A DNA stretch of 64,000 nt from a virus (Duplodnaviria > Caudoviricetes), in IMG/VR virus record IMGVR_UViG_3300044556_000086, positions 1 to 64,000 of that record; one strand, written 5' to 3'. Both the position numbers and the translations under genes were made by a program. The number at the start of each line of letters is the position of its first letter. The first letter of the stretch is position 1. The notes beneath the pieces are model-generated. The model was not told the origin of the DNA. It made no database searches and saw only the letters and a program-made list of their open reading frames with translations. Positions 1,226-34,546 of the stretch are shown here, piece after piece.

Positions 1226-1629
1226 AACCTTTAGGAGTAAAGAGATGGGCAGTAGTCACTATCTTTCTGTTGGTTTTATTAACGGTACTATTCATAGGGG
1301 GTCATGAGCTGACAGCTTATGATGTACGGACAGCCAAAGATGCTAAGGGGTACACGATAGAGAATGTCATAAATGAAAAGATGTTCTTTGGGCATAAGGG
1401 TCAGTACCACTACCATGTACGGGGGATACTAACTCATGACGTAGTGGTGAATGGGTGCAGTCCCGATGGGGAGGATAGTGGATGGGTAGAGATGAATTTC
1501 AGACACTATCCGGATGACAGTTGGAGATGTGTACGAATAGAGGCCAGACTAGGGTCTCAGAGGGTAGTACAGACGAATAAAGACTTTCTGACCCGTAATT
1601 TCACATACTATGTACATCACATCTTATGA
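1222..1629 (+). CDS. Membrane-anchored hypothetical protein
   Basis: N-terminal TM segment; ATGA overlap with the previous gene; paralogous motifs. Confidence 0.7.
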   Translation: MKPLGVKRWAVVTIFLLVLLTVLFIGGHELTAYDVRTAKDAKGYTIENVINEKMFFGHKGQYHYHVRGILTHDVVVNGCSPDGEDSGWVEMNFRHYPDDSWRCVRIEARLGSQRVVQTNKDFLTRNFTYYVHHIL

Positions 1630-1646
1630 TAGAAGGAGGAGTTCAA

Positions 1647-4400: not shown

Positions 4401-5881
4401 TGAGAAATATCATATACTCCTGTTTAGGGCAGACGGATAGTGTATATACTGATTGTTTGCAGTTAATGATAGAAGAGGCTGATAACTATGCCAAAAACTT
4501 CAAGGTAAAAGGGTTACTATCCGATACAGAACGTAAATATTTCAAGTATTTCATAAATACTTATGAAAGTAGTCATGCTCTGCCGACGAAAGATTTATTT
4601 TATGGGATGTTCCCTGGTATGCAGGGGGAACTTGACGATAATGTCGTGCAGGTACAGGCTAGGGATTTCCGAGTATACATCTTTAACGTATTGGATGCTA
4701 GGATAAACCTGTACATATCTAAAAGGATGAGTACCTTACAGAAACTCATTGCTGAGAATGGGATTACGCAGGAAATCTCTGATGAGCTAAACCGACTGGA
4801 AGCGTTGTCTAATCGAAATAAAGCGAAAGACGTATCGATACAGATAGATGCTAAATCTGAGTATGAAAACGTAAAGTCCAGACCCGCTGGGTTGCAGACG
4901 GGTATTAAGGCTGTAGATGATAAGATAGGGGGTATGAGTCCGGGTATGGTAACGACTATTGCTGGGTTTACAGGCCAATTCAAGAGTACCTGGGGGATGA
5001 ACATAGCTCATATCAATAGTTATTATCTTGGATATAATATCTGTGTCATCTCTCTGGAAATGCCGAAGAGGGATGTATATTTCAATTTACTATCCTGTCA
5101 TAGTTATTTACCGACGTTATCTAGGTTCAGTTATGTAGGACATGAAAAGATGCGACGGGGTACCATGACGAAAGACGAAGAAGATTTCATCTTTAATGAG
5201 GTGGAACCCGATATGACTCAGGATTATCTGGGGGATGATGGTAAAGTACATCCGAGGGGTAAAGTGGTCATACTGGATGAGTCTGACTTCAAAACTTTTT
5301 CTTTCGGTGAAGTGACAGCTGTATTGGAGAAGGTAGATGATTTGCTTGGTGGACAGTTAGATGCTGTCATCGTAGACTATGTACAGTTGTGTAAATTCTC
5401 TGGGACGGGTATTTCTAGTGATGCTAATAATCAGATTAATGCTTATGTTACTTTTTTCAGACGGTTAGCTCAGAACTTCCGAAAGATACCGAATAAGGAA
5501 GGGGAAGATTCCATACATAGACTTACGATGATACTACTTGCTCAGATTAATCGTACAAGTTGGCAGAAAGCTTCTAAAAATGACGGGGTGTATGATGTGA
5601 CCTGTCTGGCGGATGCTAATGAACTGGAACGAGGTAGTTCTCTGGTATTGACTACCTATACTTCTGAGGAATTAAAGATGAAGGGTACGGCTCAGGTACA
5701 GATTCTAAAGAACCGAATGGGGCAGACGATGTATGAACCTGCTCAGGTGTATGTAAACGGGGAAGCTTATGTATTCCAAGATGAAGATACCGGGGTAAGT
5801 TCTTTCGGTTCTGATGGTACGGCTTCTATTGACAGTGCTCTGGGTATGTTTGATGACTCTGATTTAGACTCCTTATTGTAA
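4400..5881 (+). CDS. dnaB: DnaB-like replicative helicase
   Basis: TGIKAVD, GFTGQFKST Walker A, SLEM, IVDYVQL, LAQINR and KNRMG motifs. Confidence 0.85.
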   Translation: MRNIIYSCLGQTDSVYTDCLQLMIEEADNYAKNFKVKGLLSDTERKYFKYFINTYESSHALPTKDLFYGMFPGMQGELDDNVVQVQARDFRVYIFNVLDARINLYISKRMSTLQKLIAENGITQEISDELNRLEALSNRNKAKDVSIQIDAKSEYENVKSRPAGLQTGIKAVDDKIGGMSPGMVTTIAGFTGQFKSTWGMNIAHINSYYLGYNICVISLEMPKRDVYFNLLSCHSYLPTLSRFSYVGHEKMRRGTMTKDEEDFIFNEVEPDMTQDYLGDDGKVHPRGKVVILDESDFKTFSFGEVTAVLEKVDDLLGGQLDAVIVDYVQLCKFSGTGISSDANNQINAYVTFFRRLAQNFRKIPNKEGEDSIHRLTMILLAQINRTSWQKASKNDGVYDVTCLADANELERGSSLVLTTYTSEELKMKGTAQVQILKNRMGQTMYEPAQVYVNGEAYVFQDEDTGVSSFGSDGTASIDSALGMFDDSDLDSLL

Positions 5882-5887
5882 TATTAT

Positions 5888-5920
5888 GGGATACTCTGTA
5901 GAAGGGTATCCTTTCCCTTT
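5888..5920 (+). terminator. Intrinsic terminator
   Basis: GGATACTCT/AGGGTATCC stem followed by T runs, after the helicase gene. Confidence 0.6.
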
Positions 5921-5930
5921 ATTTTCATAT

Positions 5931-5963
5931 TTACTTTACAATAAGTAAATCATGTGGTATACT
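5931..5963 (+). promoter_or_regulatory. Sigma-A promoter with TTACTT-N6-AAGTAA operator (copy 1)
   Basis: TTTACA-17-TATACT with extended TG; palindrome overlaps the -35 box. Confidence 0.8.
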
Positions 5964-6004
5964 AAGTATATAGAAAGTGGTAACTATCTAAGGAGGAATG
6001 AATC

Positions 6005-6400
6005 ATGAGAGAGCTGAAGAGAGTATATCATATTGGAGATACTATTATGTCTGAAAATATGGTTCTGAATATGGTTGCAGATGGTGGTACTAAGTTTGTT
6101 ATCACACATGTTTATACTAAAGAAGATGGGAATAGGGAATATAATATTTGTAACTTAGTCACTATCAAAGAAAGTGAAATCAGTGGATTAGTAAAGCCTG
6201 GTAAACCTTTACCTCAATACTCTAAAGTGTACGTAGATACCAGAAATAGTTCTATTGAAGACGATTACCATGAAGGAAATATTTTGAGAACCTGGGAGAA
6301 TAACTATGGTGATGTCATGTATGAAGTTTTCTTAGATGACTTAGGTAGGTCTGCCTGGTTCTATTGTAATGATGTCTATACTGTACTAGGAGATAAATAA
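6005..6400 (+). CDS. Hypothetical protein
   Basis: AGGAGG RBS; first gene after promoter copy 1. Confidence 0.75.
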   Translation: MRELKRVYHIGDTIMSENMVLNMVADGGTKFVITHVYTKEDGNREYNICNLVTIKESEISGLVKPGKPLPQYSKVYVDTRNSSIEDDYHEGNILRTWENNYGDVMYEVFLDDLGRSAWFYCNDVYTVLGDK

Positions 6401-12602: not shown

Positions 12603-12658
12603 ATAGTTGTGGTAAGGGAGTAGTAAAATCTAAATGACTATCTTAAGGAGGAATTACC

Positions 12659-12904
12659 ATGACTAATATTCTTTTGAAGCTGTATAAGGTATCTGAAACA
12701 TTGTTCAGAACAGAAATGTTCCTTGATGAGGATGACCCGGAAGTTATTAGACTCCGTAAAGAGCTTAAGGATTGTAAGGCTAAGGCTTCTGTCCGTTATA
12801 GTCCTGAAGTTATTGATAAAGTTATTTCTTGTGGTGAAGACTCTGGTTTGGGGAATGGGTCTGAATCTTACTGGTTTCACAAAGTTCAATCTTTAGGTTT
12901 CTAG
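12659..12904 (+). CDS. Hypothetical protein
   Basis: AAGGAGG RBS. Confidence 0.75.
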   Translation: MTNILLKLYKVSETLFRTEMFLDEDDPEVIRLRKELKDCKAKASVRYSPEVIDKVISCGEDSGLGNGSESYWFHKVQSLGF

Positions 12905-13503: not shown

Positions 13504-13529
13504 AAGGGTGTAAGAGAGGAGGATGTCAT

Positions 13530-25884: not shown

Positions 25885-26641
25885 TTAAGTGTAATTACAT
25901 TAAAAGTCTATAAAATCCCTTCAGAACGTATTCTACGCAATTCTATGATAGGTCAGGTATTATCTTGTGTAGTACGTTCTAGGTTCGATAATAATACTAA
26001 GGTAGTATATGGTCTTGTGGGTACTATTCTTATTCAAAATTGGGTAGGATAGTACCCTTTCCTTGTAACCTAAATTTTAAGTAAAATCTGTAGCTCACTT
26101 TAAATTTTAAGATACGTGCTTATAGACTTGATATAAAAGTTTTTTGTGATTAGCACATTTCACATTAAAAAATAAAGTTTTGTAGTCTTAAAATAGGGGA
26201 AATATATAATAATTTTTATGATTAACGTACTTCTTTAGGTAAATTTTGAAAATCTTGTAAACTCTGATGACTAATTTATGTTTAATAATTCAATAAAAGT
26301 GTATACATGTTACAAAAATAGGGGATAGTATCAAAAAATATCGTATAAGTATGTAATTCAGTTCTTCTACTTTCAAATTCTACTCTATTGTGGTAAAATA
26401 GATATGTACTTAAAGATAAGTAATATTTTCAGTATCATGAAAGGGAGATGATAAGTATGAAAAAGATGGATTCTATCCGTAGGAATGGAGTAGATACTTC
26501 AACCTTGAAATGGTTAGGGGTTCTATCCTTGGCATGGGGTTGATATCTTTTCTAAGTGTATTCATAAGATGGTTCTTCATATGTATTGTATGTGTGGGAC
26601 TTTGAATATTGTCTTCGTAGTATGTTAGAGAGGGTGGATAA

Positions 26642-27843: not shown

Positions 27844-28050
27844 ATGGGTGAAAATACTGATTATGTAGCTGCTGATTTGACGCAGGAAGAACGTGACGCT
27901 CTGGAATCCAGAACGAAGCACGAAGACCCGGTTGGTTATTCCGAAAACGGAGATTATCAGGCCGCACCAGCCTTCGATAGTCCGGAAGAAGAAATGAAGT
28001 ACTATCAGGAACATCCGGAAGGTGAACCTGATTCTGGTAAAGGTCAGTAA
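27844..28050 (+). CDS. Small, highly acidic protein
   Basis: Own promoter (TTTACA...TGGTAAAAT) and GAGGAGG RBS. Confidence 0.7.
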   Translation: MGENTDYVAADLTQEERDALESRTKHEDPVGYSENGDYQAAPAFDSPEEEMKYYQEHPEGEPDSGKGQ

Positions 28051-28102
28051 AATCTTAGAAAAGGGTCTTTACCTATTATAGAAAGTGTAGTATAATATAA
28101 GT

Positions 28103-28376
28103 GTAAAGAGATATCTTTACATGCATTGGGACAGGAAGCTCATGGTTAGAACCTTGGGTGGTACAGAAAACTTATCTGTATAAGTTCAGAAAGTCATTCT
28201 TAAGTTACCATTGAACCTAATGGCTATAATCATGGGGGCATGTCAAATGGTTTACCTCCTTTAAGATAGTTTTTTGGTTAGGGCTGTCTGGTTAACATCC
28301 TCCTTTCATGGTAAGATAAGCTCCGGTCAGACAGTAAGGGGAAGCACACTCTAGAGATAGGGTGTGCTTTTCTTTT
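28103..28376 (+). ncRNA. Candidate sRNA with two anti-Shine-Dalgarno segments
   Basis: Promoter TTTACC(28068)-17-TATAAT(28091); no credible ORF; hairpins; CCTCCTT twice; terminator at 28341-28376. Confidence 0.65.
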
Positions 28377-28386
28377 ACCTTAATAT

Positions 28387-28419
28387 TTACTTTACAATAA
28401 GTAAATCATGTGGTATACT
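28387..28419 (+). promoter_or_regulatory. Sigma-A promoter with operator (copy 5)
   Basis: Identical over this span to copy 1. Confidence 0.8.
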
Positions 28420-28469
28420 ATACATGTAGTAAGGAGCTTAGGTAGTGTTATTCAGAAAGGAGTTCTACT

Positions 28470-29285
28470 ATGATGAAGTTTTCTGACTATTCAGTATGCG
28501 TGGTATTCCACGGCAATGAAACTCTTGACCGATTGAAGTACATGGGGTATGTACCTGATATGGGTTTGGAAGTGTATGGTTCTTCTGAAGAGGAAGTCGT
28601 AAAGAAAGCTGCTAACTCAGTTACTATTAATGTGTATCGGAAAGTTTTGTTTGGTGAAGAAGTTCCTGTACCCGGTGAAATCATGGGTTACAGTGGTAAT
28701 CTTTATAAGTTAGTGTATGTGGATTCGTTGCAGAGATGGATTCCTGAAGGGGAAGATATTTCAAAGTATTCTAAAGGGTTCACATATTATGCTGTTCTGT
28801 ATAAGGAAAACGTGGATTATAGACGTTCTCCTGTATGGAGTGTTTATTTCAAAGATTTTGGGTGCCGTATTTACCATTATGATACGAAAGAAGAAGCAAA
28901 GTTAGGTGCTTTACAGACCTTGAAAAGTTATTTATCCTTCAATAGAGATGGCAACCTTTCTGACCCGAGAGACCCGAAAGACATTGTTCTTAAAGCTGGG
29001 GAAGAATTAGTTATGGTAGAATACAGTCTTTCCACTATTCATATTCCTGAATGGGGTAGTTCTTGGACGCCAGCTCTTGGAGAAGAGTATTACTATTTGG
29101 TTCCTTATGGCCATAACGATGAATACCTCATCAGTAAGAGAGTGAATAAGGGGTCTGAAATTGATTACAATAATTTCTGTGGTGATGTCTATAACTGCTT
29201 CAAGACTAAGGAAGACGCTTATGATGAAGCGAACCTTGGGGACACTTTGTACCAGGTAAGATGGGTTGATGTGAGCATGGGGTGA
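28470..29285 (+). CDS. Tandem HicB-like domain protein with a C-terminal phage domain
   Basis: YMGYVPDM..VYGSSEEEV...A...GEEVPVP and YYAV...WSVYFKDF.C...DTKEEA...A..TL patterns. Confidence 0.6.
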   Translation: MMKFSDYSVCVVFHGNETLDRLKYMGYVPDMGLEVYGSSEEEVVKKAANSVTINVYRKVLFGEEVPVPGEIMGYSGNLYKLVYVDSLQRWIPEGEDISKYSKGFTYYAVLYKENVDYRRSPVWSVYFKDFGCRIYHYDTKEEAKLGALQTLKSYLSFNRDGNLSDPRDPKDIVLKAGEELVMVEYSLSTIHIPEWGSSWTPALGEEYYYLVPYGHNDEYLISKRVNKGSEIDYNNFCGDVYNCFKTKEDAYDEANLGDTLYQVRWVDVSMG

Positions 29286-29291
29286 TTTTAG

Positions 29292-29660
29292 ATGGATGTA
29301 TTCTTTTCCTTTCTACTGTTTTTCCTATTCATTGTGGTTGTGGTGTGTATAATTCCTTTCAATAGTAGTCAGAAAGAGTTTTGTGAGTTGTTTGGTGGGA
29401 TAGATGACTACTATAAAACTAAGGGTGACGAAAAGGGAGTCTCTAGTTCAGATGACGAGTTAGTTACTCTATTGGACAGAAAGGCAGACCAGTGGTGTAA
29501 GTTGTATAATTTCTATGATACTAAAGGATGTTATCGTATGTCCGGGGGACATGTGGGGTATTGTCCTAGTCAGATGGGTGATGGTTGTTGTTCCACTCAT
29601 CTGATTAACAAATTGAAATCTAAAGGGAGTGGTTCTAATGGACGATGTCAAGACAGGTGA
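29292..29660 (+). CDS. Membrane-anchored small 4-Cys protein
   Basis: TM segment plus C..C..CP..C motif. Confidence 0.65.
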   Translation: MDVFFSFLLFFLFIVVVVCIIPFNSSQKEFCELFGGIDDYYKTKGDEKGVSSSDDELVTLLDRKADQWCKLYNFYDTKGCYRMSGGHVGYCPSQMGDGCCSTHLINKLKSKGSGSNGRCQDR

Positions 29661-29856
29661 ACTAATACATCTGTTAAAGGAGCAATCTTATGAGTGGTGT
29701 AGTACTTATGGGTTGAGGAAAGATAACTGGTGCTATAATGTGAATCATGGTGATGTAGATTTTTGTCCAGGTAATCTTTGCAGGGGATGTGCTATAGCAC
29801 ATCTTTTGTCATACTTCGATAGGGAAAGGTATAAAGGGAATGGAACATCTAAGTGA
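29629..29856 (+). CDS. Small 4-Cys protein
   Basis: WC..Y...WCY......FCP...C; paralogous to the previous gene. Confidence 0.65.
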   Translation: MVLMDDVKTGELIHLLKEQSYEWCSTYGLRKDNWCYNVNHGDVDFCPGNLCRGCAIAHLLSYFDRERYKGNGTSK

Positions 29857-30022
29857 TATACAGAAGATTCAGTATCTTCATGAACAGCAGGTCAAAGATG
29901 ATTTACATACTTGTACTAAGGTGATAAATCAGTATTGTTATGGTAGGGATTGTATGTATTGTATACTGGAAGACTTCTGTTCTCAGATACGGAGAAAGTT
30001 TAGTTGTTATCATAGGGGGTGA
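29840..30022 (+). CDS. Small Cys-rich protein
   Basis: C...YC...C..C....FC; overlaps both neighbours. Confidence 0.6.
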   Translation: MEHLSDIQKIQYLHEQQVKDDLHTCTKVINQYCYGRDCMYCILEDFCSQIRRKFSCYHRG

Positions 30023-30264
30023 AATCTATGAAGCTGGTAGTACCTGAAAGGGCATTAACTGGGTTAGAAGAGAAGATATTTACTCTTATTGTTATCAAGT
30101 TACAGGGTTACTATTGCCGAAAGAAATACACGAATAAGTGTATGAGAATCAATTCTGAAGGTCGTATTCAGTTATGTCCTTTCCGTATTCCCTGGGATGT
30201 AGGGGATGGGTATGAGTGTAGTCTTTGTGTTTCTCATAAGGTGGTGTCATCTAATCAACTATGA
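30019..30264 (+). CDS. Small 4-Cys protein
   Basis: C..C..CP..C motif. Confidence 0.6.
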   Translation: MKSMKLVVPERALTGLEEKIFTLIVIKLQGYYCRKKYTNKCMRINSEGRIQLCPFRIPWDVGDGYECSLCVSHKVVSSNQL

Positions 30265-30482
30265 AAATCTTGACGTATGAAGAAAAGCACATTGTAGGTA
30301 CCTTACTCAATAAAGTAAAAATGGCCTGTTGTTCTGTGTATCATAAGAATTGTGTAGATGATGCTGGTACTATCTGTCCGTTACGTTCTGAGGGTGACTC
30401 TAAGTATTGGTATTGTTCTTTGTACCATACGGAGAAGATACTTCAACTAAATGAGTACAGTGATGAAAAGAAAAAGTGGTAG
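30261..30482 (+). CDS. Small 4-Cys protein
   Basis: C..C..CP..C motif. Confidence 0.6.
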   Translation: MKILTYEEKHIVGTLLNKVKMACCSVYHKNCVDDAGTICPLRSEGDSKYWYCSLYHTEKILQLNEYSDEKKKW

Positions 30483-30494
30483 GGGTGTTTCTAA

Positions 30495-31007
30495 ATGATT
30501 GATGCAGAGCAGAAATGGAAAGAATATCAGGAACGGATGAGAAAGCAGAAGGAAGAAGAGAAAGAGCATAGGCGTAAATCTATTCCAAAGAAAGTCCGTC
30601 AGAAAGTGTATGAAAAGTATGATGGTCATTGTGCTTATTGTGGTAAGAAGTTAGAGTATAAAGATATGCAGGTAGACCACATTCAGTGTCATTATCTGAA
30701 TGGTTCTGATGAACTGGAAAACTATAACCCAGCTTGCAGACAGTGTAATTTCTATAAGGGTACTATGGATATCGAAAAGTTCCGTGAACAATTAACTAAG
30801 TTAAGGGAACGTCTTAGAAAGGTGTATATTTACAGATTATCTATAGATTACAACTTAATCGAGGAAAAAGATAACCTTATTCAGTTCTATTTCGAGAAGG
30901 TAGGTCAACATGAAGGGAATAAGTATGTTCGTGGTAATAAAACGAATGTTAGACCCGTAACTATTACTCAGAAGGAAAAACCTGCTCCATCTGGGATAAA
31001 GAAATAA
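30495..31007 (+). CDS. HNH endonuclease
   Basis: CAYCG, MQVDH and NYNPACRQCNFYKG motifs. Confidence 0.9.
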   Translation: MIDAEQKWKEYQERMRKQKEEEKEHRRKSIPKKVRQKVYEKYDGHCAYCGKKLEYKDMQVDHIQCHYLNGSDELENYNPACRQCNFYKGTMDIEKFREQLTKLRERLRKVYIYRLSIDYNLIEEKDNLIQFYFEKVGQHEGNKYVRGNKTNVRPVTITQKEKPAPSGIKK

Positions 31008-31049
31008 TTCTATTAAGTCTATTTTTAGAAGGAGGAAACTTAAACAGCA

Positions 31050-31163
31050 ACCTTCTCAAGAATCCCCCGCTTCTATAAGTGGGAGAGGTTCAATTATGAA
31101 GGGTGATAAATTTTTTTGAGTGGGGGAGGTTCAATTATGAAGGGTATTAAATTTTTTGAGTGG
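31050..31163 (+). mobile_element. IS605 right-end remnant with a tandem duplication of its terminus and flank
   Basis: CTTCTCAAGAATCCCCCGCTTCTATAAGTGGGAGAGGTTCAA is nearly identical to 16961-17002; ~41-bp unit repeated at 31078 and 31119. Confidence 0.75.
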
Positions 31164-31247
31164 TTATCTGAAAATCCAGAATGGATAGCCGTCTATCTTC
31201 TTATCATAGGGTGGGTAGTAATTGTTCTTTCAGGTAGCTTAAAGTGA
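31137..31247 (+). CDS. Small membrane protein (36 aa, not in the ORF track)
   Basis: MKGIKFFEWLSENPEWIAVYLLIIGWVVIVLSGSLK; its GGAGG RBS comes from the duplicated element end. Confidence 0.55.
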   Translation: MKGIKFFEWLSENPEWIAVYLLIIGWVVIVLSGSLK

Positions 31248-31265
31248 GGAAAGGGGAGGTATACC

Positions 31266-32153
31266 GTGGAAAAGAAATATTTTACATCTGACGACTATTT
31301 CCATAAGTTGAAGACTGATAGGGAAACTGTCACAGAGGAAAATCTAAATCAGTTCTATTCAGCCTGTAAACAGATAGGGTTGCAGTTCAAAGATACGGGT
31401 CAGACAGATGGACTAAACCAAGTATTATTTCTATTAGACTGTATCGAAAAGGAAAAGAAGCTGTTAGACTTAGGGATAAACCAGTACATTTCTAAGTCCT
31501 TGATTCAGAAGTATGTAGATTCTATTTCCGATGATGATGTGTCTATCATAGAGTTATCTAAATTTTCTAGGGTAGTACCTCTCCATATTAAAGAACGGAT
31601 ACAGAAATGTAAAGACATATTCGATAATATGTACGTACTATACACGGACTACTCAGAGGATAGGTATAGGGAAATCAGAAGAGCAGATGAAAACCGTGAC
31701 CCTATACTATTTGGTACTTTTGAAAAAGGTGATCTAATCAATGAAAGGTTCTACATCATAGGTGACTGGGAAGATAAGTATTGTCATTTAACCTGATTCT
31801 GCAAGAAGTCTCCCGCCTCTTTAGGCGGTGAGATGAATTGCACTGACGTAATCCATAAAATACCGTGGGGCGCACGGGAATCTACGCCTGTGGAGAGAGT
31901 GTAAGCCGCCGTAACTCTTTGGAGTCCGTGGCGCTGTTCTCGTTGAAGCAGGAAGCTCCCGCCTCTATAGGTGGGAGTACGTTCACCTCTTCAGAATATG
32001 ATAGATGTCTGTAAGGATAAAGGGGTAGAGGATATCGTATCAGATTTAGATACTTCTTACTATAGAGAACTGGAAGGTACTCTGAAAACTCCTAATGCTT
32101 CTAAAGAACCGTGGTGGAAGAAAGTGTTAGGTTTATTATTTGGTAAGGGGTGA
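31266..32153 (+). pseudogene. Phage gene interrupted by a non-autonomous IS605 element
   Basis: Removing 31792-31986 joins IGDWEDKYCHL-T-LQNMIDVCKD in frame. Confidence 0.8.
31792..31986 (+). mobile_element. 195-bp non-autonomous IS605 element carrying a TnpB omegaRNA-like scaffold
   Basis: TTTAA target; left guide AAGT plus hairpin; CCGTGGGGCGCACGGGAATCTACGCCTGTGGAGA...GAAGCAGGAAG scaffold; right guide GAAG, hairpin, ends TTCAC. Confidence 0.9.
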
Positions 32154-32988: not shown

Positions 32989-33441
32989 ATGGGTTTCGAT
33001 ACAAATAAGGTAGATATCTACACAAGTACCTGTACAATATACCAGTTAATTAAGTCTGGGGTATTGACTCATGAACTAGATACAGGTGACTTCTCAAGGG
33101 AACATGAGTCGTGGGATACAGTTCAAAAGAGTAGGTTCATAGAATCTATACTACTCAGGATACCCATATCTAGTATGTACTTCGATATGACTATTTACAC
33201 GAAGACAATTATTCTTGATGGATACCAAAGATTATCTGCTATAAAGTCTTTTGTAGTAGATAAAGATTTATCACTGGAAGGGTTAGAATATCTCAAAGAC
33301 TTAGAAGGGTGTACGTTTGATACTTTACCTAAGAACTTGAGTAGAAGGATAGAAGAAACAAAGATACTATGTCATTCTGTTCAACCAGGTACTCCAGAGT
33401 CCATTAGTCATACGATATACTATTTACTTCATACTATCTAG
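32989..33441 (+). CDS. Stand-alone DUF262 (ParB-like) domain protein
   Basis: WD..QKSRFIESILLRIPI and ILDGYQRLSAIKSF motifs. Confidence 0.85.
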   Translation: MGFDTNKVDIYTSTCTIYQLIKSGVLTHELDTGDFSREHESWDTVQKSRFIESILLRIPISSMYFDMTIYTKTIILDGYQRLSAIKSFVVDKDLSLEGLEYLKDLEGCTFDTLPKNLSRRIEETKILCHSVQPGTPESISHTIYYLLHTI

Positions 33442-33659: not shown

Positions 33660-33890
33660 ATGGTAGATACGAGTAATCTGGTATCCTCATTATTGGATGC
33701 TCAGCTTGGGTATTGTGGGGAGTTCCGTAAAGAGGGTCATTGTTGTAAAGTATTAGATAACGGGGATGTTTCCTATTGTCCTATGTTGTACTATGGGGAG
33801 TTGTACAATGGGTGTACCATTCACATGAAGGAACCTATTAACTGTAGGATAACTGATTTCATACAAGTTTTGATAGGTGGTAGTAACTAG
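33660..33890 (+). CDS. Small 4-Cys protein
   Basis: YC...C...YCP...C, like the 29.3-30.5 kb family. Confidence 0.6.
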   Translation: MVDTSNLVSSLLDAQLGYCGEFRKEGHCCKVLDNGDVSYCPMLYYGELYNGCTIHMKEPINCRITDFIQVLIGGSN

Positions 33891-33913
33891 GTATCTTAAA
33901 GGGGGTATACCTA

Positions 33914-34546
33914 ATGGTAGGTACTAAAATATTCAATAGTCAGGATGTAGTAACGTACTGTTCAGATAGGGTATGGGTTGAATCATTAGTATTTATAGTG
34001 AACGATGAAGGTATTTCTTATAAAGTAAATAATATACGGGATGATGTTATCTTTCATTCTCAGTATACAGGGATAGGGAAAGGGAAAGGGATAAATGCTT
34101 TCATACGTAACGATAATCGTGAGGTATTGATATTCCGATATTCTAATGCTGTGTATGATTGGTTCGTAGACTTTCTATTCAAACTATGGGAAGTCATTAA
34201 GAAACAAGGATTATCTTATTCTGGGGTTTATCATATCTTGGAACATAATTGGTATAATGTACTGGATTATTCTGGAGAAGATAGGGAAATCAATGAGATT
34301 GCAGATATTGATATAGGAATTAATAATTTCATTGTAGCTTTCATCATTATAGGTTTATCTCCTGTATACTCTGTTAATTCTGGAATTAAACTAACTGATA
34401 TGAAGGTATTCTATGGAAAGAAGTTGAAGTCTATAGAATTCCGTAGTACAGTAACTCGTAAAGATGGAGTGACAAATTTCTATAATACTCGTAGATACAT
34501 ACTATCTTATGATTCTAATTCTAGGTCATATTATTTGAAGGAATGA
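33914..34546 (+). CDS. Hypothetical protein
   Basis: ORF track; RBS present. Confidence 0.7.
   Translation: MVGTKIFNSQDVVTYCSDRVWVESLVFIVNDEGISYKVNNIRDDVIFHSQYTGIGKGKGINAFIRNDNREVLIFRYSNAVYDWFVDFLFKLWEVIKKQGLSYSGVYHILEHNWYNVLDYSGEDREINEIADIDIGINNFIVAFIIIGLSPVYSVNSGIKLTDMKVFYGKKLKSIEFRSTVTRKDGVTNFYNTRRYILSYDSNSRSYYLKE

Follow-up and report, generated by a model that had tools for sequence, protein, structure and literature searches.

Does the 419-nt gap between the genes at 27844-28050 and 28470-29285 of this phage genome encode an RNA that reads the ribosome-binding sites of the phage's own messages? The window, by which we mean the whole stretch of 64,000 nucleotides analysed here, covers the initial 64 kb of a viral record of 93,433 bp in IMG/VR, whose completeness is estimated at ~45%. 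The record has a G+C content of ~37%, carries all its real genes on the + strand and encodes a contractile tail sheath, an RNA ligase/kinase fusion, HNH and homing endonucleases and a TnpB-like protein. Among cultured phages, Streptococcus phage vB_SagM-GXN1 (40%) and Bacillus and Listeria myoviruses have the closest sheath proteins. This kinship and the strong GGAGG ribosome-binding sites suggest that the phage is a large, apparently lytic myovirus whose host is Gram-positive (Bacillota). The window also holds a 748-aa kinase-phosphatase-RNA-ligase fusion of the RNA repair type at 36614-38860 and a 418-aa TnpB-like protein of the transposase family at 40338-41594.

Extent, coding potential and predicted fold of the unit

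The preliminary description had proposed a promoter-to-terminator unit without a credible ORF, and this was borne out, for both strands, at window 28068-28375; every sequence that it quoted lies where it had been placed. Its "270-nt unit" consists of a core of ~148 nt that carries an optional inserted domain of 126 nt (Table 1). The promoter opens the gap, and the transcript start was placed at ~28103 from the -10 box. The terminator ends the unit and not the gap, because the next promoter comes after it. A consensus terminator scan did not list the hairpin at 28342-28369, probably since its stem can extend into the T run. The only + strand ORFs in the unit encode 20 and 26 aa, both without a Shine-Dalgarno (SD) sequence, and the only - strand ORF encodes 23 aa. 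A 5-codon + strand frame at 28247 behind GGGGG, found in long forms of the unit only, was rejected since this SD is absent from the short forms. The folding energy of the whole RNA (z = -3.2) was better than that of all 200 shuffles, and the CCUCC cores are only ~30-60% unpaired in the predicted folds.

Table 1. Positions in the window of the elements of the RNA unit and of its best predicted pairing sites (TIR, translation-initiation region)
Feature	Position	Strand	Details
Sigma-A-type promoter, TTTACC-17-TATAAT	28068..28096	+	10/12 matches; opens the gap
Putative transcript start and 5' hairpin (7 bp, loop GAUA)	28103..28120	+	predicted fold
Optional structured insert domain, 126 nt	28121..28246	+	from alignments
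Arm 1	28247..28271	+	anti-SD core ACCUCCUUU at 28254-28262, then AAGAUAG
Stem CUGUCUG/CAGACAG with a 37-nt loop bearing arm 2	28284..28334	+	stem halves 28284-28290 / 28328-28334
Rho-independent terminator (11-bp stem, 6-nt loop, U tract)	28342..28375	+	hairpin 28342-28369, then TCTTTT
Best predicted arm-1 site, TIR of gene 33914 (210 aa, no family)	33888..33912	+	duplex -28.8, total -17.9 kcal/mol
Predicted arm-1 site, TIR of gene 12659 (81 aa)	12635..12661	+	total -15.4 kcal/mol
Predicted arm-1 site, TIR of gene 6005 (131 aa)	5981..6007	+	total -15.2 kcal/mol
Best predicted arm-2 site, TIR of gene 13530 (94 aa)	13513..13527	+	total -14.3 kcal/mol
Second predicted arm-2 site, TIR of gene 1647 (SNF2-family helicase, Pfam)	1621..1644	+	total -13.7 kcal/mol

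The twin anti-SD motif of the unit and the position of arm 2 in the loop of the CTGTCTG/CAGACAG stem, both described before, were confirmed. Across the 93,433-bp record, the + strand has CCTCCTTT at just two places, 28255 and 28299, both inside the unit; CCTCC, rare on this G-rich strand, has 17 copies there. Both arms contain CCUCCUUU, which we take to be identical to the anti-Shine-Dalgarno tail of the ribosome, and they share 9 bases (ACCUCCUUU, CCUCCUUUC) with what is presumably the usual 3' end of bacterial 16S rRNA. Both also contain AAGAUA, which adjoins CCUCCUUU in arm 1 and lies six bases further in arm 2, so that arm 2 is made of the same two elements as arm 1 with CAUGGU between them. 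The loop thus holds arm 2 as UCCUCCUUU at 28298-28306 and AAGAUAAG at 28314-28321, and a third CUCC at 28321-28324. The shorter motif AGAUA occurs four times in the core: in the 5' hairpin, in both arms and in the terminator loop. Within the arm-2 loop, UAAGCUCC (28317-28324) is perfectly complementary to GGAGCUUA (28432-28439) in the 5' UTR of gene 28470. Self-masking through this 8-bp match was considered and set aside; the match is kept in the related contig L008, is broken in L007 and is probably due to chance.

Comparison of the whole window with Rfam 15 at the gathering score gave no match (the families included C4, RsaE, csRNA, pRNA and HEARO/omegaRNA), and the E-value mode gave only chance-level matches on the terminator, with E of at least 2. 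ARAGORN found no tRNA or tmRNA in the unit, and neither the unit nor its insert domain has a paralog elsewhere in the phage genome. Two mobile-element origins were rejected: the insert domain bears no similarity to the phage's IS200/IS605 elements and has no HEARO match, and the unit as an omegaRNA or guide cassette is unlike the ends of TnpB/IscB elements and likewise matches no HEARO model.

Long and short forms in related phages

No match to the unit was found by blastn among cultured phages, and exact-pattern scans for the arms returned none from viral contigs and JGI metagenomes. The downstream protein had no relatives in viral contigs, the tail sheath search gave relatives at only 31-33%, and an exhaustive profile search with the 271-aa neighbour protein recovered no distant relatives. 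Searches with the proteins of both flanking genes reached related contigs in other assemblies. A copy of the unit stands in 7 related metagenome contigs (L007, L008, L009, L010, L011, L012 and, in part, L015), which span several lineages and samples. Promoter, 5' hairpin, both arms, the CTGTCTG/CAGACAG stem and the terminator are common to these relatives, L015 being partial, and the promoter shows small variations (TTTACT/TTTACA and TATATT).

The window, L007 and L009-L011 carry long forms with 28121-28246, and L008, L012 and L015 carry short forms from which this segment is cleanly absent; the core RNA is therefore ~148 nt long. The insert follows ...CTTTAC in the long forms, and the short forms read ...CTTTGT or ...CTTTGC at this site. 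The pairings ACAUGC/GCAUGU and CUCAUGG/UCAUGGG close the domain. L012 has another gene upstream of the unit, as would fit an autonomous unit. In L015, arm 1 runs straight into the sequence of window 31851 onward, and the ~3.6-kb deletion (window 28272-31850) removes arm 2, the terminator, the 271-aa gene, Cys-rich small genes and an HNH gene.

Substitutions in the core are unevenly distributed. In an alignment of five distinct core sequences, the arms have 1 variable column among 56 and the remaining positions have 33 among 94 (Fisher p = 4e-7). Alignment shifts in L007 account for part of these 33; by our count, ~25 are real events. Arm 1 is invariant at all 8 loci and the arm-2 loop is invariant but for one T/C. 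Compensatory changes in the hairpins, for which the preliminary description had suggested looking in relatives, are indeed present, though their statistics are not significant: the sequences are few, all the relatives are close, and the shuffle controls for covariation reached no significance. In the terminator, 100% of the cells are paired in four distinct sequences, with two pairs changed on both sides, and the CUGUCUG/CAGACAG stem keeps its pairs when an indel shift in L007 is allowed for. Pair 2 of the 5' hairpin is U-A in the window and C-G in L008 and L012, and the stem is longer in L007. RNAalifold on three long forms gave 45 pairs in the insert domain, 6 of them changed on both sides, including three consecutive pairs that turn from GGU/ACC to AAG/CUU. 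This pattern fits an expressed RNA whose arms would be read by sequence and whose stems would be read by shape.

Several other features of the surroundings were recorded. Window 31797-31990 is a non-coding element that is GC-rich although the genome is AT-rich, and a pair of similar hairpins flanks it (CTCCCGCC...GGCGG at 31811-31833 and 31957-31978); its part 31887-31954 resembles Rfam RAGATH-18 below threshold (28.8 bits, where the gathering score is 44.9; E = 0.0016 when 381 nt were searched). At L015 11045-11178, arm 1 is fused to this kind of GC-rich element, 96% identical to window 31856-31986. Near the RNA unit, window 32989-33441 encodes a GmrSD_N-domain protein related to defence or counter-defence, and the 154-aa gene at 35948-36412 matches in size and order the Tad2-like protein of L009 (a precomputed Pfam hit in that contig). 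A further relative, L019, encodes a Sequestin-domain protein in a stretch related to defence or counter-defence (4777-6188).

Complementarity of the arms to translation-initiation regions

A simple ORF rule that takes the SD into account yielded 102 TIRs, with which the arms were compared. Arm 1 (28247-28271) formed 12 duplexes of -20 kcal/mol or better, compared with 1.2 for shuffled arms that kept CCUCC and 2.9 for those that kept ACCUCCUUU; none of the 200 SD-preserving shuffles reached its observed minimum or its top-5 mean. Shuffling with the SD kept, the control that the preliminary description had called for, thus showed complementarity of arm 1 to a subset of TIRs well beyond the SD. 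Arm 2 had been described as a second arm that matches the phage's own genes; it proved hardly better than a generic anti-SD sequence (p ~0.05-0.1 in shuffles).

The individual matches reported for arm 1 at 12637, 5985 and 565 and for arm 2 at 26436 and 13513 are all real, and the genes behind them ranked unequally. Once accessibility was included, 12659, 6005 and 13530 stood at or near the top, and gene 587 dropped out of the top 12. The site at 26436 is weak against arm 1, the only arm scored for it, lies outside the TIR set and precedes a doubtful ORF of 31 aa. The best arm-1 target, gene 33914, is new to the present analysis. Opening arm 1 costs ~3 kcal/mol, and with opening energies included the totals for genes 33914, 12659 and 6005 (Table 1) compare with a median of -4.0 kcal/mol. 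The predicted targets belong to no family, except the SNF2 helicase at 1647.

The excess pairing of arm 1 arises because a tag, TATCTTA(A/G), stands before GGAGG at a subset of TIRs, and it is to this tag that AAGAUAG of arm 1 is complementary. The tag is found at ~6-10 of 93 TIRs, with genes 587, 3684, 6005, 12659, 12931, 33460, 33914, 34571, 64034 and 74214 as its bearers; it is specific to this subset, and the TIRs have no general upstream consensus. ATCTTA lies no more than 12 nt upstream of the SD core at 6 of 93 TIRs vs 0.5 expected (p = 1.4e-5). The 14-mer TATCTTARRGGRGG has 5 matches vs 0.43 expected, and its sole minus-strand match is arm 1. As a foreign control, TIRs of unrelated phages reached -23 to -25 kcal/mol with arm 1, and the share at -20 kcal/mol or better was ~4% among them and 11% among the phage's own. 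Two other origins of the tag were rejected. TATCTT as a -10 box has a fitting distance to a -35 box only at 33914 and fails as a general explanation, and the tag bases do not pair with the standard 16S tail, taken here in its presumed usual form.

In the relatives, the tags are kept in part. Homologs of 12659 in L018-L020 retain the tag with a C-to-U change that gives a G.U pair, and L021 keeps part of it; the 33914 homolog in L007 has A-to-G and G-to-A changes that are both compatible with pairing, and the TIR of 13530 is unchanged in L018 and L019. In L009, the closest relative, the arm is identical but the homologs of 33914 and 34571 have degraded tags.

A second layer of control had been proposed for the same genes. 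Seven promoters, at 5932, 11310, 12571, 13472, 28388, 34747 and 35143, carry the palindrome TACTT-N-AAGTA over the -35 box (an 18-nt region with 7 matches vs 0.11 expected) and probably form one regulon of a dimeric DNA-binding regulator. The promoter of the unit itself is without this palindrome of the neighbouring early promoters. As the preliminary description had claimed, operator-bearing promoters, three of the seven, precede 6005, 12659 and 13530, and 6005 (behind the promoter at 5932) and 12659 are the first genes behind theirs. The four others precede genes that rank lower (35203 at -9.7, 34807 at -8.8) or not at all, and neither 33914 nor most tag-bearing TIRs lie behind palindromic promoters. 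The overlap between targets and operator promoters is thus real but partial, and a two-layer shut-off by repressor and small RNA stays a conjecture because most tag-bearing TIRs are not behind operator promoters.

A candidate anti-RBS RNA, its alternatives and its relation to known systems

The unit has gene-like boundaries, is conserved, changes in ways that preserve its structure and is complementary in excess to a subset of the phage's TIRs. We give a probability of about 0.5 to the reading that it represents a new family of phage-encoded, trans-acting anti-RBS small RNAs whose arm 1 reads the start-associated tag of a gene subset. Host sigma-A RNA polymerase would transcribe it from ~28103 to ~28375 into a predicted RNA of ~274 nt, or ~148 nt in the phages with the short form. 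This RNA would consist, in order, of the 5' hairpin, which may be of the kind that often protects RNA ends, the optional insert domain, a single-stranded arm 1, arm 2 in the large hairpin loop and the intrinsic terminator. The CCUCCUUU and AAGAUA elements of the arms would mirror the extended tag UAUCUUA(A/G)-GGAGG at ~6-10 of ~100 genes. Pairing in vivo, most strongly at the predicted sites of genes 33914, 12659 and 6005, would extend over the tag, SD and spacer and into the initial bases of the start codon. Ribosomes would then be shut out, so that the presumed direction of the effect is repression, and double-strand RNases might gain access to the mRNA. The covarying insert domain could be a regulatory add-on.

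The same complementarity might come from a generic anti-SD RNA or mimic of the 16S 3' end, which would bind any strong SD, with global damping of translation or host shut-off as the outcome, or would titrate a factor that recognises the ribosomal anti-SD tail, in either case without a dedicated phage regulon. The nine bases that both arms presumably share with the 16S 3' end, an arm 2 no better than one with shuffled flanks, foreign TIRs that score just moderately worse, and the decay of tags beside fixed arms in L009 all favour it. However, the invariant part of arm 1 runs 14 nt beyond the anti-SD core and mirrors a tag that is enriched at the phage's own TIRs, and a single RNA would have to outnumber every SD-bearing mRNA; we consider this account rather unlikely. 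If this were instead a structured RNA whose arms bind a protein of the phage or the host, or one with another role such as scaffold or decoy, the TIR complementarity would be incidental or secondary. Such an RNA would explain why the arms are more conserved than the stems, why AGAUA recurs four times in the core and why there is an optional covarying insert, which has no role in the pairing model. Yet the reverse-complement relation to the TIR tag is statistically real, and the gene neighbourhood, whose members are unannotated and vary, indicates no protein partner; we consider this reading unlikely.

Simpler origins were also weighed. Since there is no terminator after gene 27844-28050, read-through transcripts would include the unit, which could then be a mere 3' UTR and terminator of this upstream 68-aa gene, or a decaying remnant, of which the variant in L015 that lost half the unit might be a sign. 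The unit has a conserved promoter of its own, however, and L012 retains it although the gene upstream is another one; its arms are near-invariant and its stems change by compensatory substitutions, and we hold this origin to be quite improbable. Read on the minus strand, the arms are perfect SD contexts and could be real ribosome-binding sites of small ORFs, a condition that the preliminary description had named as contrary to its own proposal. But arm 1 would serve only a TTG frame of 6-9 codons that differs between the long forms and is left without any start codon in the short forms, the ATG at arm 2 abuts the SD with no spacer and opens a 6-codon frame, and the + strand carries all the real genes. 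No small minus-strand ORF uses the motifs, and we reject this explanation.

RsaE/RoxS, LhrC, the streptococcal csRNAs and the RNAIII loops pair with SD regions through unpaired pyrimidine-rich motifs present in more than one copy, placed in loops or in linkers between hairpins, and end in a 3' terminator hairpin. These Gram-positive C-rich RNAs are chromosomal, controlled by stress or regulators, and mostly use UCCC or CCCC. The unit resembles them in its repeated pyrimidine-rich motifs in loop and linker and in its 3' terminator hairpin, but it is phage-borne, has the full CCUCCUUU with a phage-specific extension and has no Rfam match. T4 RegA, a repressor, and RegB, a nuclease that cuts GGAG, are proteins that act at the ribosome-binding sites of many early mRNAs. 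The unit would likewise yield a phage factor acting at the ribosome-binding sites of many of the phage's own messages; unlike RegA and RegB, the candidate factor is an RNA.

The c4 antisense RNA of P1 and P7 acts in trans, pairs around the ribosome-binding site of a phage mRNA and blocks translation, with its complementary segments likely in loops (PMC12197685). In the same way, the unit would encode a phage RNA, a candidate for action in trans, that is complementary to phage mRNA around the ribosome-binding site. The c4 RNA uses two short segments, is processed out of a longer transcript and acts on a single target, the icd-ant mRNA; its phages are temperate and infect Gram-negative bacteria. 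Here, in contrast, a large Gram-positive-type myovirus that is apparently lytic carries a unit with its own promoter and terminator and many candidate targets, and this unit has no homology to c4 in sequence or structure, as judged from the absence of an Rfam match.

For the tag, the closest parallel is the Start-Associated Sequence (SAS) of Cluster K mycobacteriophages; conserved and asymmetric, it takes in the SD core, lies a few bases upstream of start codons and marks only some of the non-structural genes, almost always with the same orientation (PMC3203893). Whether its reader is a phage RNA or a protein was left open by its authors, and no reader RNA was described (PMC3203893). The tag found here is likewise asymmetric, includes the SD core and is enriched just upstream of the starts of a gene subset. 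It differs in sequence (TATCTTA(A/G)GGAGG here, GGGATAGGAGCCC in SAS), in its low-GC phage with nearest cultured kin on Streptococcus and Bacillus and hence another host phylum, in its fewer and looser copies, and in that a candidate reader RNA is encoded by the same genome. By homology, the unit belongs to none of c4, the C-rich-seed small RNAs and SAS.

The regulatory RNAs of large virulent Gram-positive phages are, to our knowledge, almost unexplored, and we know of no reader for start-associated phage tags since 2011. If the RNA is made and pairs as predicted, a lytic phage would time a set of its genes through one small RNA that reads an extended ribosome-binding-site tag, and arm and tag together would, if this is true, form a compact and portable translational switch. 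More tentatively, as a possibility that we favour less than the regulatory RNA itself, the RNA and the UAUCUUA-GGAGG tags may work as an RNA-read "address label" by which the phage switches the translation of its own dispersed genes as a block; if so, an address-label RNA would supply the missing reader for the SAS-type tags of other phages.
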